A stretch of DNA of 64,000 bases from Thermoleophilia bacterium UBA2241 (GCA_002347645.1 DDYF01000060.1:38663-102662), one strand, 5' to 3'; numbered from the stretch's first letter, positions 26,709-32,285 are shown. The notes: generated by a model from the sequence alone, not told the origin. Translations and numbers: made by a program.

Positions 26709-27758
26709 ATGACGGTGGAGATGAACGGCACGCTCGACGCGGTCGAGGTCGCAGCGCCCGCCAAGGTCAACCTTGCGCTGCTCGTCGGACCGCTGCGACC
26801 CGACGGCTTCCACGAGCTCGCCTCCCTGATGGTGCCGGTGACGCTCGGCGATCTGGTCGTCGTGCGGCGCACACCCGGTGAGGACCTCGTCGTCGACTGT
26901 GCGGTGTGCCCCGGCGAGCGGAACCTTGCGGCGCGTATGGTGCGCGAGCTCGAGGCGCGCCTCGAGCGCCGCTTCGAGGTCGCCGTCGACGTGCACAAGC
27001 AGATCCCCGTGGGCGCCGGCCTCGCCGGTGGAAGCTCGGATGCCGCGGCGACGCTCGTCGCGCTCGAGCGTCTCTTCGAGCTCGACCTCTCGCCGCGGTT
27101 GCGCTACGAGGTCGCAGCGGCGGTCGGCTCCGACGTCCCCTTCTTCCTCTGGCCCGGGGCGCAGTTGGCCATGGGACGCGGGCAGCTGCTCAAGGATGTC
27201 GGCCTGGTGGCCCCGCTCAGCTTGGTGATCGCCGTCCCCGAGGTGTCGCTCTCCACGGCCGCCGTCTACGGCTGGAGGGACGAGGACGTCCGGGTGACCT
27301 TGCCCGACTTCGTTCCTCGGGCGCGGATGCTGTCGAGCCGCGTCGCCGCCGCGCGCACCCTGCATGACATCGCCGCGCTGGTCGAGAACGACCTCGAGGC
27401 GAGCGTCGTCGCGCGCCGCCCCGAGGTGGGCGCCCTGCGCGACCGCCTGCTCGCCGAGGGGGCGGCTGCGGCGGCCATGACCGGCAGCGGGTCCGCCGTC
27501 TTCGGCCTCTTCACCGACGTCGAGGCCGCGAGCCGCGCGCGATCGCGGCTGCTCGCGGCCTCACGCGACGCCTCGCCGGACGCGGGCGGCGTCTTGCCGC
27601 CCGGGCGCGTCTTCTGCGTCACCGACCTGCAGGCCGCCCCGGAGGACGGCGCGCACCCGTGGGCCGGCGTGCGGCCCGCGGCGCCCTCGGGCGCTCCCCG
27701 GCGCAAACCGCGACCGGCTCGCCGGCGGCCCTCGGGGCGCCCTCCCGGCGCAAGTTGA
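26709..27758 (+). CDS. ispE: 4-diphosphocytidyl-2-C-methyl-D-erythritol kinase with Pro/Arg-rich C-terminal tail
   Basis: PAKVNLAL, GHMP motif PVGAGLAGGSSDAAA; rsmA-ispE synteny. Confidence 0.88.
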   Translation: MTVEMNGTLDAVEVAAPAKVNLALLVGPLRPDGFHELASLMVPVTLGDLVVVRRTPGEDLVVDCAVCPGERNLAARMVRELEARLERRFEVAVDVHKQIPVGAGLAGGSSDAAATLVALERLFELDLSPRLRYEVAAAVGSDVPFFLWPGAQLAMGRGQLLKDVGLVAPLSLVIAVPEVSLSTAAVYGWRDEDVRVTLPDFVPRARMLSSRVAAARTLHDIAALVENDLEASVVARRPEVGALRDRLLAEGAAAAAMTGSGSAVFGLFTDVEAASRARSRLLAASRDASPDAGGVLPPGRVFCVTDLQAAPEDGAHPWAGVRPAAPSGAPRRKPRPARRRPSGRPPGAS

Positions 27759-27784
27759 CCCCCGCGCCGGGCGGCTGGTATACA
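27755..27784 (+). promoter_or_regulatory. candidate promoter TTGACC-18nt-TATACA for the LKR operon (overlaps ispE stop)
   Basis: -35 TTGACC 27755-27760, -10 TATACA 27779-27784; would give a ~310-nt leader. Confidence 0.4.
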
Positions 27785-27830
27785 CGGGTAGAGAGCGATC
27801 GACGCACCGTCCCCGGATGGGGCGGTGACT

Positions 27831-28052
27831 TCCCGAGGGGGTGTGATAGCTGACCAGGCGGCAGTCGGTCGGTCGTCACGCGCCTGGTGGCATCGTCCCA
27901 TCGCGTTCGCGCTGATCTCCCCTCGAGCTCGACCGTCGCGGACGTCGTCTGTCCACTGCGTGGCGCTTGCGCGGCGTCCACGCGCACCGCTCCCGACCCG
28001 CCTGCCCGTCATGTTCTCGCGCGACCCTTTTCGGGAGGTGTGATAGCTGACC
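27831..28052 (+). repeat. two copies of GAGG(G)GTGTGATAGCTGACC in the LKR leader (27831-27855 and 28029-28052)
   Basis: 15-nt core GTGTGATAGCTGACC identical in both copies, 197 nt apart. Confidence 0.85.
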
Positions 28053-28102
28053 GACCTTCCAGCTGATCGCAGCACGTCATCATCCGCACTGGAGGGCTGA
28101 TC

Positions 28103-29422
28103 ATGCGCAACGTAGGTATCCGCAGGGAGGACAAGGACGTCTGGGAGGCCCGCGTCCCGCTCGTTCCCGGCGACGTGAAGGATCTGATCGCGCGCGGCGA
28201 CGTGGCGGTCGCTGTGCAGCCGTCGGCGCAGCGCGTGTTCGCCGACCGCGAGTTCGCCGGCGCCGGCGCTGCCGTCGCCGAAGATCTCGGCGACTGCGAC
28301 ATCGTGCTCGCCGTCAAGGAGATCCCTGTCGACTTCTTCCGGGCTGGCAAGACGTACGTCTTCTTCTCGCACACGATCAAGGGGCAGCCGTACAACATGG
28401 CGATGCTGCGCCGCATGATGGAGCTCGGCTGCCAGCTTCTCGACTACGAGCGTATCGTCGACGAGCGCAACGCACGCCTCATCTCGTTCTCGCGCTTCGC
28501 CGGCCTTGCGGGCGCCGTCGACACGCTCTGGGCGCTGGGCCGGCGCCTCGAGTGGGAGGGTCTGTCGCCGAACCCGTTCGCCGAGCTGGAGCAGACGTAC
28601 ACCTACGGCACGCTCGACGGCGCGCTCGACGCGGTCGCCCGGTGCGAAGAGCGCCTCGCGGCCCACGGCGCGCCCGAGGCGCTCGGCCCCCTGGTGATCG
28701 GCGTGGCTGGTGACGGGCGCGTCTCACGCGGCGCCCAGGAGGTCATCGCCGCGCTCGATCCCCTGGTGGTGGCGCCGGACGAGCTCGAGACGGTCGCCGC
28801 CGGTCGGCCCTCGGGTCGCCGGGCGTACGAGGTCGTCTTTCGCGAAGAGGACATGGTCGCGCGGAAGCCGGAGGAGCCCTCGGCCGCCGGCGCCTTCGAC
28901 GTCCGCGACTACTACGAGCACCCGGAGCGCTACGCAGGCAGGTTCGCGCGCTTCCTGCCCATGCTGCCGGTCCTGATCAACGCGATCTACTGGGAGGAGC
29001 GCTACCCGCGCCTGGTCACCAAGGCCGACGCGCGCGCTCTCTGGGCGGGTGGCGCGCGCCCGCGCCTGACGGTGATCGGCGACGTGAGCTGCGACATCGG
29101 CGGCTCCGTCGAGCTCACCGTCAAGGAGACGCACGTCGGTGACCCCGTCTACGTGTACGACCCGCTCACGGACGAGGTCCACGACGGGTTCGCCGGCCGG
29201 GGCCCGGTCGTCCTCGCCGTCGGCAACCTGCCCTGCGAGCTGCCGCGCGACGCCTCCGAGACCTTCAGCTCGGTGCTCGCCACTTTCATGCCGGCGCTCG
29301 TCGCCGCCGACTTCTCGGCTCTCTTCGACGAGCTCGCCCTGCCGGACGAGCTCAGGAGGGCGCTGATCCTGCACCACGGCGAGCTCACACCGGACTACGC
29401 CTACTTGAGGAGCTTCGTATGA
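28103..29422 (+). CDS. lysine-ketoglutarate reductase / saccharopine dehydrogenase (L-lysine-forming), AlaDH/PNT fold, LKR-domain-like
   Basis: GIRREDKDVWEARVPLVP, KTYVFFSHTIKGQPYNM, EHPERYAGRF, INAIYWEERYPRLV, CDIGGSVE, GNLPCELP, all matching the LKR half of eukaryotic AASS. Confidence 0.75.
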   Translation: MRNVGIRREDKDVWEARVPLVPGDVKDLIARGDVAVAVQPSAQRVFADREFAGAGAAVAEDLGDCDIVLAVKEIPVDFFRAGKTYVFFSHTIKGQPYNMAMLRRMMELGCQLLDYERIVDERNARLISFSRFAGLAGAVDTLWALGRRLEWEGLSPNPFAELEQTYTYGTLDGALDAVARCEERLAAHGAPEALGPLVIGVAGDGRVSRGAQEVIAALDPLVVAPDELETVAAGRPSGRRAYEVVFREEDMVARKPEEPSAAGAFDVRDYYEHPERYAGRFARFLPMLPVLINAIYWEERYPRLVTKADARALWAGGARPRLTVIGDVSCDIGGSVELTVKETHVGDPVYVYDPLTDEVHDGFAGRGPVVLAVGNLPCELPRDASETFSSVLATFMPALVAADFSALFDELALPDELRRALILHHGELTPDYAYLRSFV

Positions 29423-30798
29423 AGAGGGTTCTCGTGCTCGGCGCGGGCATGGTCGCGCGCCCGCTCGTCTCCTGCCTGCTGGCGCGCGACGACCTTGAAG
29501 TCACCGTGGCCGACGTCGACAGTGGGCGGGCGGCCGCGCTGACTGCCGGCGCTCCCCGCGGCCGCGGGGTCGCGCTCGACGCCCGCGACACGGCGGCGGT
29601 GGGCGCGCTGCTGGACGACTGCGACCTGCTGGTGAGCCTGCTGCCGCCTGAGTTCGAGCCCGCGGTCACGCGGCTCGCCGTGGCCCGACGCAGGAGCATG
29701 GTGAGCGCGTCGCCGCGCGGCGAGGCCGGGATGGACGCGCTCGCCGGCGAGGCACACGCCGCCGGCATCGCGCTCATGCCCGAGGTTGGCCTGGATCCGG
29801 GTCTCGACCACATGGCGATCGCCCGCATGGTCGCGCGCGTGAGGGCGCGCGGCGGCCGGGTGCTGTCCTGCCGCTCCTACTGCGGCGGGCTTCCCGCGCC
29901 CGAGGCGAACACCAACTGCTGGGACTACAAGTTCTCCTGGAACCCCAAGGGCGCGGTGGAGGCCTCGCTCTTCGACGCCCGCTATCTGCGTGACGGGCGC
30001 GAGGTCTACGTCCCCAACACGGAGCTCTTCACGAAGCACTGGCTGGTCCCGATCCCCGGCTTCGACGAGCTCGAGGCGCACTTCAACGGCGACTCACTGC
30101 CGTACGTGGGCATCTACGGTCTGGACGGCGTGCGCGACCTCGTGCGCGCCACGCTGCGCTACCCGGGCTGGGCGTTCACGATGCGCCAGGTGCAGAAGCT
30201 CGCCTACAACTCGACCACCGAGCTGCCGGACGCCCCGGCGACGTACGCCGCCCTCACGCGCCGGCTCGCCGGCCTCGCCGAGGGCGAGGACCTGGTCACC
30301 GGCCTGGCCCGCGTGCTCGACGTCGACGCGCAGTCGGCGGTGATCGAGCGCCTCGTCTGGCTGGGTCTCACCGCCGACGACCCCATCGTCTGGAGCGACG
30401 GCCAGGAGCGCACGCCGCTCATGGCGCTCGCGGAGCGGATGTTCGAGAAGATGATGTTCGCCCCGGGCGAGCGCGACCTCTCGGTGCTGCACAACGAGGT
30501 CGTCGCGGCGCTCCCGGCCGGCGGATGCGAGCGCTCGACGGCGACGCTCGTCGCGTACGGCGACCCCGGCGGCGACTCGTCCATGGCGCTCACCGTCGGC
30601 ACCCCCGCGGCGATCGCCGCCACGTTGCTGCTCGACGGCCGGATCCCCGAGACGGGCCTGGTGATGCCCGTCAAGCCCCACATCTACGAACCGATCCTCG
30701 ATGCGATGGCCGCCCGGGGCGTCGTGTTCGACGAGCGGACGGAGCCGCTGCCCGTCTCCGGCAGCGGCTCCGCGTCCGCACAGGAGGCGATGTCATGA
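29419..30798 (+). CDS. saccharopine dehydrogenase (L-glutamate-forming) family protein, paralog A
   Basis: VLVLGAGMVARP Rossmann, GLDPGLDHM, SYCGGLPAPE, YKFSWNP; ATGA overlap with LKR stop. Confidence 0.75.
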   Translation: MKRVLVLGAGMVARPLVSCLLARDDLEVTVADVDSGRAAALTAGAPRGRGVALDARDTAAVGALLDDCDLLVSLLPPEFEPAVTRLAVARRRSMVSASPRGEAGMDALAGEAHAAGIALMPEVGLDPGLDHMAIARMVARVRARGGRVLSCRSYCGGLPAPEANTNCWDYKFSWNPKGAVEASLFDARYLRDGREVYVPNTELFTKHWLVPIPGFDELEAHFNGDSLPYVGIYGLDGVRDLVRATLRYPGWAFTMRQVQKLAYNSTTELPDAPATYAALTRRLAGLAEGEDLVTGLARVLDVDAQSAVIERLVWLGLTADDPIVWSDGQERTPLMALAERMFEKMMFAPGERDLSVLHNEVVAALPAGGCERSTATLVAYGDPGGDSSMALTVGTPAAIAATLLLDGRIPETGLVMPVKPHIYEPILDAMAARGVVFDERTEPLPVSGSGSASAQEAMS

Positions 30799-32129
30799 AG
30801 AAGGTCCTGGTCCTCGGCGCGGGCATGGTGTCGCGCCCGCTGGTGCGGTACCTGCTCGACCACGGGGGCATCGAGGTCACGGTCGCCACGCGGACCGTTG
30901 CCAAGGCGCAGGCGGTGCTCGAAGGGCACGAGCGCGGAGCGGCCGTCGCCCTCGACGCGCGCGACGACGAGCGGGTACGCCGCCTCGTCGCGGCGGCCGA
31001 CCTGACCGTGAGCCTGCTGCCGCCGGCGATGCACGTCGCCGTCGCGAAGCACGCCCTCGAGGCGCGGCGGCACTTCCTGACGACCTCGTACGTGAGTCCG
31101 GAGATGAAGGCGCTGGACGGCGCCGTGCGCGAGGCGGGCCTCACCTTCCTGAACGAGGTCGGTCTCGACCCCGGCATCGACCACATGTCTGCTCTGCGCA
31201 TCATCCACGGCATCCAGGGCCGTGGCGGCAAGGTCGTCTCGTTCCGCTCCTACTGCGGCGCGCTGCCGGCGCCCGAGGCCGACACCAACCCGTGGGGCTA
31301 CAAGTTCTCCTGGGCACCGCGAGGGGTGATCCTCGCGGGGCGCAACAGCGCGCGCTACCTCGAGGACGGCGAGGAGCGGACGCTCCCCGGCGAGCGTCTC
31401 TTCTCGCGCCACTGGCTGGTCGACGTGAAGGGCTTCGGCGAGTTCGAGGCCTACTACAACCGCGACTCCATGCCCTACGTCGAGACGTATGGGCTGGCCG
31501 GCGTGCGCGACATGTTCCGCGCCACCCTGCGGTACCCCGGGTGGAGCCACACCATGCAGAAGCTCGCCGACCTGGGGTACTTCGACCTCGGCGACCTCGC
31601 TGAACCTCCCGTCACGTACGCCGGTCTGACCGCGCTGCTGGCTCAGGTGGCGGCCGGCGACGACCTGGCCGCGAGGGTGGCCGAGGTCCTCGACGTCGAC
31701 CCGTCGTCGGAGGCGATCACGCGCATGTCGTGGCTCGGCCTGCTCACCGGCGACCCGATCCCGTGGGACGACCTCCCGACCCGTTCGCCGCTCGACGCGC
31801 TCGCCTCGCGCATGCTCGCGTTGATGCCGCTCGAGAAGGGCGAACGCGACCTCTGCGTCATGCAGCACGAGATCATCGGCGAGTACGCCTCCGGGACGCG
31901 CGAGACGGTCACGTCGACCCTCGTGTCCTTCGGCGAACCGGACGGCGATTCGGCCATCGCGCGGACCGTCGGGCTGCCGGCCGCGATCGGCGCAGCGATG
32001 GTCCTCGACGGCCGCATCGACGAGCCCGGCGTCTTGATCCCGGTCGCCCCGGCGGTCTACGACCCCATCCTCGACGAGCTCGCCGCCTCCGCCGGGGTGG
32101 TCTTTCGCGAGCGCGCCACCGTGGTCTGA
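30795..32129 (+). CDS. saccharopine dehydrogenase (L-glutamate-forming) family protein, paralog B
   Basis: Same motif set (GLDPGIDHM, SYCGALPAPE, YKFSWAP, TLRYPGW); ATGA overlap with paralog A. Confidence 0.75.
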   Translation: MKKVLVLGAGMVSRPLVRYLLDHGGIEVTVATRTVAKAQAVLEGHERGAAVALDARDDERVRRLVAAADLTVSLLPPAMHVAVAKHALEARRHFLTTSYVSPEMKALDGAVREAGLTFLNEVGLDPGIDHMSALRIIHGIQGRGGKVVSFRSYCGALPAPEADTNPWGYKFSWAPRGVILAGRNSARYLEDGEERTLPGERLFSRHWLVDVKGFGEFEAYYNRDSMPYVETYGLAGVRDMFRATLRYPGWSHTMQKLADLGYFDLGDLAEPPVTYAGLTALLAQVAAGDDLAARVAEVLDVDPSSEAITRMSWLGLLTGDPIPWDDLPTRSPLDALASRMLALMPLEKGERDLCVMQHEIIGEYASGTRETVTSTLVSFGEPDGDSAIARTVGLPAAIGAAMVLDGRIDEPGVLIPVAPAVYDPILDELAASAGVVFRERATVV

Positions 32130-32210
32130 CCAGGGCGCGGTGGTACAATCACCTGCCGCGCGCGGCCGCGGCGTGTGCCGCGGGGCCGCCCCGGCGCGAC
32201 GAGAGCACGG

Positions 32211-32285
32211 TGGGGCGTAGCCAAGTGGTAAGGCACCGGGTTTTGGTCCCGGCATCCGGAGGTTCGAATCCTCCCGCCCCAGCCA
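32211..32285 (+). tRNA. tRNA-Gln (anticodon TTG), CCA encoded
   Basis: Cloverleaf: acceptor TGGGGCG/CGCCCCA, anticodon stem CCGGG/CCCGG with loop TTTTGGT, T-arm GGAGG-TTCGAAT-CCTCC. Confidence 0.85.

Follow-up and report, generated by a model that had tools for sequence, protein, structure and literature searches.

What controls the genes of the saccharopine route of lysine catabolism in the Thermoleophilia, soil actinobacteria that are mostly uncultured? To our knowledge the regulation of this route in bacteria is essentially uncharacterised, and we know of no studied RNA regulators in the Thermoleophilia; the literature yielded no RNA element either for the genes of this pathway or for members of this class. 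The question is raised by one locus of Thermoleophilia bacterium UBA2241, analysed here as a stretch of 64,000 nt (the window, whose coordinates are used throughout), in which genes of the pathway appear to lie behind a long leader with a repeated sequence in it. The original prediction for this locus offered a riboswitch, an attenuator or paired regulator sites as readings of the leader. For comparison, leaders were gathered from genome and metagenome contigs (L001, L091, L095, L096, L002, L092 and L097), the closest LKR genes being found in uncultured Thermoleophilia.

The operon and its putative promoter

The features that define the operon and the two ends of its leader are as follows.

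27755-27784, plus strand: putative promoter, TTGACC (27755-27760), an 18-nt spacer and a TG-extended TATACA (27779-27784); conserved hexamers
28091-28105, plus strand: Shine-Dalgarno GGAGGG (28091-28096) and the LKR ATG at 28103; conservation
28103-29422, plus strand: LKR-type gene; Pfam domains and a PDB match to the AASS LKR domain
29419-30798, plus strand: SDH-type gene, its start overlapping the LKR stop; Pfam domains and PDB matches

In the PDB search the LKR product aligned along its whole length with the human AASS LKR domain (E 1e-72), and the SDH product likewise with the SDH enzymes of yeast (E 1.7e-67) and human (E 2.8e-65). Judged by these alignments, the homology of the two genes to the LKR half and the SDH half of human AASS is genuine, and the earlier label of an LKR operon is sound. 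A second Sacchrp_dh gene follows and runs to 32129, giving a tandem saccharopine-dehydrogenase-family pair; its true start is probably near 30800, since the listed ORF (30525-32129) overlaps the first gene by 270 nt. A tRNA gene (32211-32282) lies downstream of the tandem genes, at the end of the region 29419-32282.

The ORF upstream of the leader holds its earlier ispE label, as it carries GHMP-kinase domains (Pfam). In the window (27650-27758) this ispE-type ORF continues about 35 codons past the stop used in L001 and L095 (GGG TGA after ...VTDLQA...) and ends within the TTGACC hexamer, an extension that probably reflects loss of the stop or has no function.

A sigma70-like TTGACC-18-TATACA motif had been placed over the ispE stop, and it is present there. 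A simple promoter scan left it uncalled because TATACA lacks the final T. In the leader alignment, TTGACC and the whole of CTGGTATACAC are invariant in the window, L001, L091 and L095, with a variable spacer in between, a footprint that supports the proposed promoter. Promoter-like counterparts occur in the L002 clade (TGATAGGCT) and in L097 (TTGACG-17-TATAGG), at the same distance from the hairpin described below as P2; in every case, the window type included, the -10 element is 45-50 nt upstream of it. Transcription is predicted to start near 27791, giving a leader of about 310-312 nt, and LKR would be transcribed from this promoter. At the other end of the leader, all homologues keep GGAGG followed by the ATG, together with the N-terminus MR.(V/I)GIRRED.

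One repeat copy is the arm of a hairpin

Between these two ends the leader holds the following features.

27805-27827, plus strand: P1, a hairpin of variable sequence that follows the predicted start and precedes P2 (CACCGUCCC...GGGGCGGUG); predicted fold
27837-27886, plus strand: hairpin P2, with 5' arm 27837-27855, loop 27856-27866 and 3' arm 27867-27886; fold and conservation
27926-27997, plus strand: about 72 nt specific to the window, including a GC-rich hairpin (27957-27990); alignment, boundaries approximate
28011-28043, plus strand: 10-codon uORF MFSRDPFREV; present in the sequence, its stop within copy 2
28034-28052, plus strand: repeat copy 2, GGAGGTGTGATAGCTGACC; the 5' arm of P2 only, with no 3' arm after it

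The repeat finder returned GGGGGTGTGATAGCTGACC (27837-27855) and the sequence of copy 2 as a 19-nt repeat, 95% identical and 197 nt apart. When one indel is allowed the repeat reaches 27831-27855 and 28029-28052 (25 and 24 nt), which confirms the two copies as originally delimited. Each copy has a further short block downstream of it (TTCGCGCTGATC at 27906-27917 and TTCCAGCTGATC at 28057-28068), and the exact 16-mer GGTGTGATAGCTGACC has no third site in the 64 kb with up to three mismatches allowed. Given that 27700-28110 is 100% identical in two independent public assemblies (L093 and L094), copy 2 is no assembly artefact. Copy 1 is the 5' arm of P2, a hairpin of the form GGGGGTGTGATAGCTGA-loop-GGTCGGTYGTCRCG with a core of 13 bp that extends to 19-22 bp, and it is conserved along with about 30 nt downstream.

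The conserved core GTGATAGCTGA (27843-27853 and 28040-28050) contains TGA, TAG and TGA, placing stops in two of three frames, and is preceded by a Shine-Dalgarno-like G run; relative to copy 1, a G-to-A change gives copy 2 a canonical GGAGG. A small ORF through P2 was considered and rejected: the GTG ATA GCT GAC frame stops after four codons in L002, and lengths differ everywhere.

Hairpins at the position of P1 are predicted in all six LKR leaders, each of unrelated sequence, and are individually weak (z -0.9 to -2.2), for which reason P1 was rejected as a significant structure. L097 has no P1; instead a stem, GCGAUGUCGUG/CACGACAUUGC, encloses P2. The stretch 27926-27997 lies between a block ending in GCGCTGATC, conserved among the four closest relatives, and an island, CCGCCTGCC. 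Neither the leader alignment nor a comparison by eye offers it a counterpart in L001, L091 or L095, and it is either an insertion in the window or a deletion in its closest relatives; the helix 27957-27990 appears in the predicted fold of the window's leader.

P2 is conserved and travels with LKR

P2 lies upstream of LKR in seven contigs of one Thermoleophilia clade (L001, L091, L095, L096, L002, L092 and the window type). Its identity to the window's copy is 94-96% in L001, L091 and L095 and 76-80% in L002 and L092, whereas the leader downstream of it is only 28-40% identical. Conservation of this kind, above the surrounding non-coding background (76-96% versus 28-40%), is what one would expect of a structured cis-regulatory RNA. 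The comparative alignment of LKR leaders to which the original prediction had looked thus bears out copy 1, as part of P2, and finds copy 2 and the uORF nowhere else.

The known set comprises nine copies from three lineages. A search of the window and 99 related loci with a covariance model built from these nine found no further copies; there is one full copy in the 64 kb and one in each related locus of 3-7 kb. In a neighbour-joining tree the LKR proteins encoded behind P2 (P0001, P0002, P0006, P0011 and P0012) surround a clade whose genes lack it, and this paraphyly indicates that P2 is ancestral in the LKR lineage and was replaced once. It has been retained while the LKR proteins diverged to 71% identity. 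The gene upstream changes, from ksgA-ispE in the window and L002 to a divergent SH3-domain gene in L092, and P2 stays, which shows that P2 goes with LKR.

The sister clade without P2 has a different leader and promoter and adjoins ferredoxin/AFOR genes.

L081:2330-2503, L083:2335-2505, L088:880-1050, L089:950-1128 and L220:500-679: leaders of the sister clade that lacks P2

These leaders have a conserved layout of their own, in which a G-run hairpin comes after a GGTWCATAATG -10 region, and share with the window only the proximal block ATCATCCGCACTGGRGGG (about 28078-28096). In L002 (2960-3003) and L092 (1040-1083), whose leaders are otherwise unalignable, there is a common proximal block GCTTCCT...ATCACCCCGG(G)AGG; an anti-SD-like AUCACCCC within it has two possible pairing partners, the Shine-Dalgarno sequence and the 5' arm of P2.

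P2 folds on one strand

P2 also has a strand-specific stable fold, again as one would expect of a structured cis-regulatory RNA. The MFE in the window is -33.3 kcal/mol, with a z of -3.9 on the plus strand versus -1.3 on the minus strand; homologues reach z values of -3.9 to -5.3 on the plus strand, stabilities range from -24 to -33 kcal/mol, and the fold is significant on the plus strand only. The covariance model gives 77.7 bits on the plus strand and 15.6 bits on the minus strand of the window, and each copy 65-84 bits as against at most 25 bits on the reverse strand.

The pattern of substitution points the same way. Over the nine sequences, 95% of cells are paired, the loop is free in sequence and length, and three G.U pairs are invariant. 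Every difference in the arms is a G-C/G.U or U.G/U-A exchange that pairs solely as plus-strand RNA, and lineage differences in the 3' arm, all C-to-U or G-to-A, keep pairing in that strand's RNA. Among 22 pairs (nine sequences, three lineages), nine are invariant, ten have changed on one side (G-C/G.U) and one, in the apical mini-helix, on both sides; with a single such pair, covariation support is minimal. A mismatch, A27848.C27874, occurs in the window alone, the other eight copies having A-U. In full-length leaders of five homologues P2 is predicted to form with a probability of 0.96-0.99.

At about 100 nt the promoter-P1-P2 unit is compact, and no other part of the leader is conserved between clades. 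Together with the stability of P2, this could suggest a short independent sRNA starting near 27791 and running via P1 to P2 as a U-tail-less ("I-shaped") actinobacterial terminator, with LKR transcribed by read-through or from another promoter; duplication of the unit as a module in L097 (see below) would also suit it. However, no copy of P2 is followed by a U tract, a terminator scan of 27500-28300 found no terminator-like site, the unit always points toward, and lies close to, a downstream gene, and a terminator stem would be expected to covary, not to keep its sequence. We consider an sRNA quite improbable.

A second context for P2

A metagenome pattern scan found P2 twice in L097, a 1-kb contig of lower G+C.

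L097:1-214 and L097:631-841, inverted: two copies of a unit of promoter, leader and P2, 416 nt between them, promoters facing outward

This inverted duplication of a 214-nt unit is 89-95% identical and has diverged; its two P2 copies differ in loop sequence and by stem changes that preserve pairing. The right unit lies upstream of a signal-peptide ORF (ATG at 952) and not of LKR. A downstream AUCACAUCUCC in L097 can pair with the 5' arm of P2.

An inverted duplication in an unrelated contig is compatible with mobility, and the two arms of P2 have a common half-site, GTGAYARCYGAC, in an element conserved in sequence rather than structure. These features are what one would look for if P2 acted as DNA, either as an inverted-repeat operator for a transcription factor or as a REP/MITE/IS200-like mobile hairpin settled in leaders. 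Against the operator, the arms are 10 nt apart in L097 and 13 nt apart in LKR leaders, a difference of 3 bp that a rigid dimer would not tolerate and a hairpin loop would; moreover, three asymmetries between the arms and the changes in the 3' arm make G.U on the plus strand and A.C on the other, which accounts for the gap between 77.7 and 15.6 bits. Variable spacing and one-directional G.U asymmetry thus argue against a dimeric operator on double-stranded DNA. Against mobility stand a position fixed relative to the promoter and the vertical inheritance indicated by the LKR tree; and whereas a REP- or MITE-like hairpin would be expected many times per genome, at sites unrelated to promoters, the stretches scanned have a single full copy in the 64 kb of the window and in each related locus of 3-7 kb. 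Searches of viral, phage and plasmid sequence did not turn up P2: in viral contigs the gapped P2 pattern had no match and the 14-mer matches were down to chance, none with the 3' arm; plasmids and phages gave nothing meaningful; and protein databases, searched as a proxy for a nucleotide search, held no spuriously called ORFs across P2. Action at the level of DNA is therefore quite unlikely. The spacing and asymmetry of the arms fit a hairpin formed in RNA and used as a portable regulatory module, and the duplication in L097, in front of divergent transcription units of which one is not LKR, has the pattern of a module that is shared.

Copy 2 and the uORF are private to the window

Copy 2 lies 51 nt upstream of the LKR ATG and is absent from all seven leaders that bear copy 1 (L001, L091, L095, L096, L002, L092 and L097); the covariance model does not recognise it. 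It looks like the product of a partial duplication, recent and confined to this genome, of the 5' arm of P2. The sequence just 5' of it, GCGACCCTTTTCGGG, is homologous to GCGACCCGTTTCCGGG of L095 and resembles the 5' flank of copy 1, TTCCCGAGGG, and on these grounds the simplest origin is a microhomology-mediated copying of the 5' arm into a pre-existing site, probably by template switching at the microhomology TTCCCGAGG / TTTTCGGGAGG.

The uORF (ATG TTC TCG CGC GAC CCT TTT CGG GAG GTG TGA) is present as originally placed, ending in the second copy. The leader alignment shows it conserved in none of the relatives, its ATG being TCG in the homologous stretch of L095 (CGTCTCGTCC versus CGTCATGTTC); no purine-rich Shine-Dalgarno sequence precedes it and it has no lysine codons. 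An attenuator finds no support in a uORF without lysine codons whose ATG is missing in relatives, in a region without a terminator-like site. Paired regulator sites fare no better, given that the seven related leaders have copy 1 alone. What stands of the original set of readings is a conserved, strand-specific RNA structure behind a conserved promoter.

A variant of these ideas would have copy 2 compete with copy 1 for the 3' arm (27867-27879), perhaps coupled to the uORF, or would treat the two copies as paired operators. Copy 2 is indeed complementary to the 3' arm (an inverted repeat), the uORF stop falls inside it, and it borders a long-range pairing, 27828-27873 with 27986-28039, that the window's full-length leader is predicted to favour over P2. 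The predicted probability of P2 is 0.0004 in that leader and 0.013 in that of L092, and in both it would be a non-equilibrium structure, the window's fold being tipped away from P2, according to the model, by the A.C mismatch and the flank of copy 2. However, the gap between the long-range fold and P2 amounts to 4-5 kcal/mol of about 143, which is inside the error of the energy model, and P2 would form first during transcription; for both reasons we treat this fold as an unproven curiosity. Further, copy 2 pairs with the 3' arm with a probability of 0 in the predicted ensemble, its own region (28028-28075) has no significant local fold (z -1.4), the region lacks a terminator and the uORF lysine codons, and every relative that has kept P2 and the operon does without copy 2 and the uORF. 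A two-copy mechanism is therefore very unlikely, and the duplication and the uORF are a private and probably neutral event.

P2 and known leader RNAs

At gathering score, Rfam returned only two tRNAs in the whole window. Over 27500-28400 at E<=10, with the lysine family RF00168 included, there were six noise matches (miRNA, snoRNA, CRISPR-DR and similar), far below gathering, one of them a miRNA family matched spuriously by a small hairpin around copy 2. The scan thus agrees with the original inspection by eye, which had matched the leader confidently to neither the L-box nor any other riboswitch, and with no match P2 is not an L-box. The L-box and the window's leader are alike in being structured leaders on lysine-metabolism operons, but the former folds as a junction of five helices and represses genes for biosynthesis and transport, whereas P2 is a plain hairpin on a catabolic operon.

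Could P2, perhaps with flanking leader, nevertheless be a new riboswitch aptamer that switches the catabolic operon on in response to lysine, saccharopine, 2-aminoadipate semialdehyde or pipecolate? Its place in the leader of a lysine-catabolic operon and its strong, strand-specific and sequence-constrained conservation would suit this. In small hairpin-type riboswitches a non-canonical binding pocket lies within the hairpin, and the invariant alternating G.U / A-U pairs of P2 could form one. The NAD+-I (nadA), xanthine (NMT1) and HMP-PP (thiS) riboswitches are of similar size, with a conserved core in what seems an extended stem, but they are Rfam families in which internal loops or bulges are conserved, while P2 is nearly all paired and matches none. 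It has no junction, conserved bulges or supported pseudoknot.

Nor is there a conserved expression platform common to the clades, although in the L002 clade an anti-SD/SD hairpin (AUCACCCC..GGAGG) could be one. Complementarity between the P2 loop and downstream sequence is no better than in shuffles, and a pseudoknot of the loop with a downstream island was rejected because it rose above shuffles in no sequence; the loop/island pairs GGCAG/CUGCC in the window's four closest relatives and GGAAG/CUUCC in the L002 clade look compensatory. Duplexes between the 5' arm and downstream sequence are likewise mostly no better than shuffles, those with anti-SD-like sequence, which would make a three-part translational switch, having shuffle-level energies in six of eight leaders; the other two are L002 (0.03) and L097a (0.04). 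Finally, the P2 of L097 stands before a signal-peptide gene and not LKR. We therefore regard a new riboswitch as unlikely. Lysine as the effector is a guess from gene context; in L097 the hairpin stands upstream of a different gene.

Parallels are also offered by leader hairpins that bind proteins. RAT elements, which are bound by PRD antiterminators (LicT/SacY) and measure about 29 nt in all, ribosomal-protein autoregulatory leaders and the operator hairpin of phage MS2 are, like P2, single hairpins of conserved sequence, and such a hairpin can be reused before several operons of one organism. P2 differs in its length (19-22 bp, much longer than a RAT), in overlapping no terminator, in lying about 220 nt from the start codon and in having no cognate protein known or encoded nearby, and it shares no sequence similarity with any Rfam leader. 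It is thus apparently an undescribed leader RNA element of a known kind, a cis-regulatory leader hairpin, with no family match. P2 could instead be a processing site or, as discussed above, a mobile DNA hairpin. The RNase III stems of E. coli pnp, rnc and proU are comparable in presenting about two helical turns of dsRNA near the 5' end of an mRNA, but RNase III sites conserve shape, whereas P2 conserves 40 nt of sequence.

A candidate docking site in the leader

We suggest that the region is the 5' leader, of about 310 nt, of the saccharopine-pathway (LKR-SDH) operon, with its own conserved promoter, and that P2, some 45 nt from the start of the transcript, is an RNA element of long standing whose sequence is constrained and which would serve as a sequence-specific docking site for a trans-acting regulator. 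Most likely this regulator would be an RNA-binding protein, and once bound at P2 it may set how well the downstream message is translated or how stable it is. Copy 2 and the uORF would stand outside the conserved mechanism. Invariant arms with three invariant G.U pairs, a free loop, a plain hairpin shape and reuse of the unit lead us to favour a docking site, likely for a protein. P2 is best read as a new, narrowly distributed cis-regulatory leader hairpin, probably the recognition site of a trans-acting factor. The data establish the repeat, the conservation of P2, its strand specificity, its distribution and its absence from Rfam; we infer transcription from the proposed promoter, the RNA-level function of P2, what kind of factor binds it and in which direction it regulates, and for the package as a whole (own promoter, P2 docking a trans-acting factor, copy 2 private) we would give a probability of roughly 0.45, somewhat short of even odds.

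A more ambitious version would make P2 the sensing core of an undescribed class of regulatory RNA in Thermoleophilia, whether riboswitch or operator for an RNA-binding regulator, that turns on the saccharopine pathway and at least one other operon, the extra 5' arm in the window making its leader bistable; this we hold to be doubtful.

The private status of the duplication and the uORF spares effort on an attenuator model. A 50-nt hairpin that has stayed nearly invariant amid randomised surroundings and has been reused elsewhere offers instead a concrete, small and testable candidate for RNA control.
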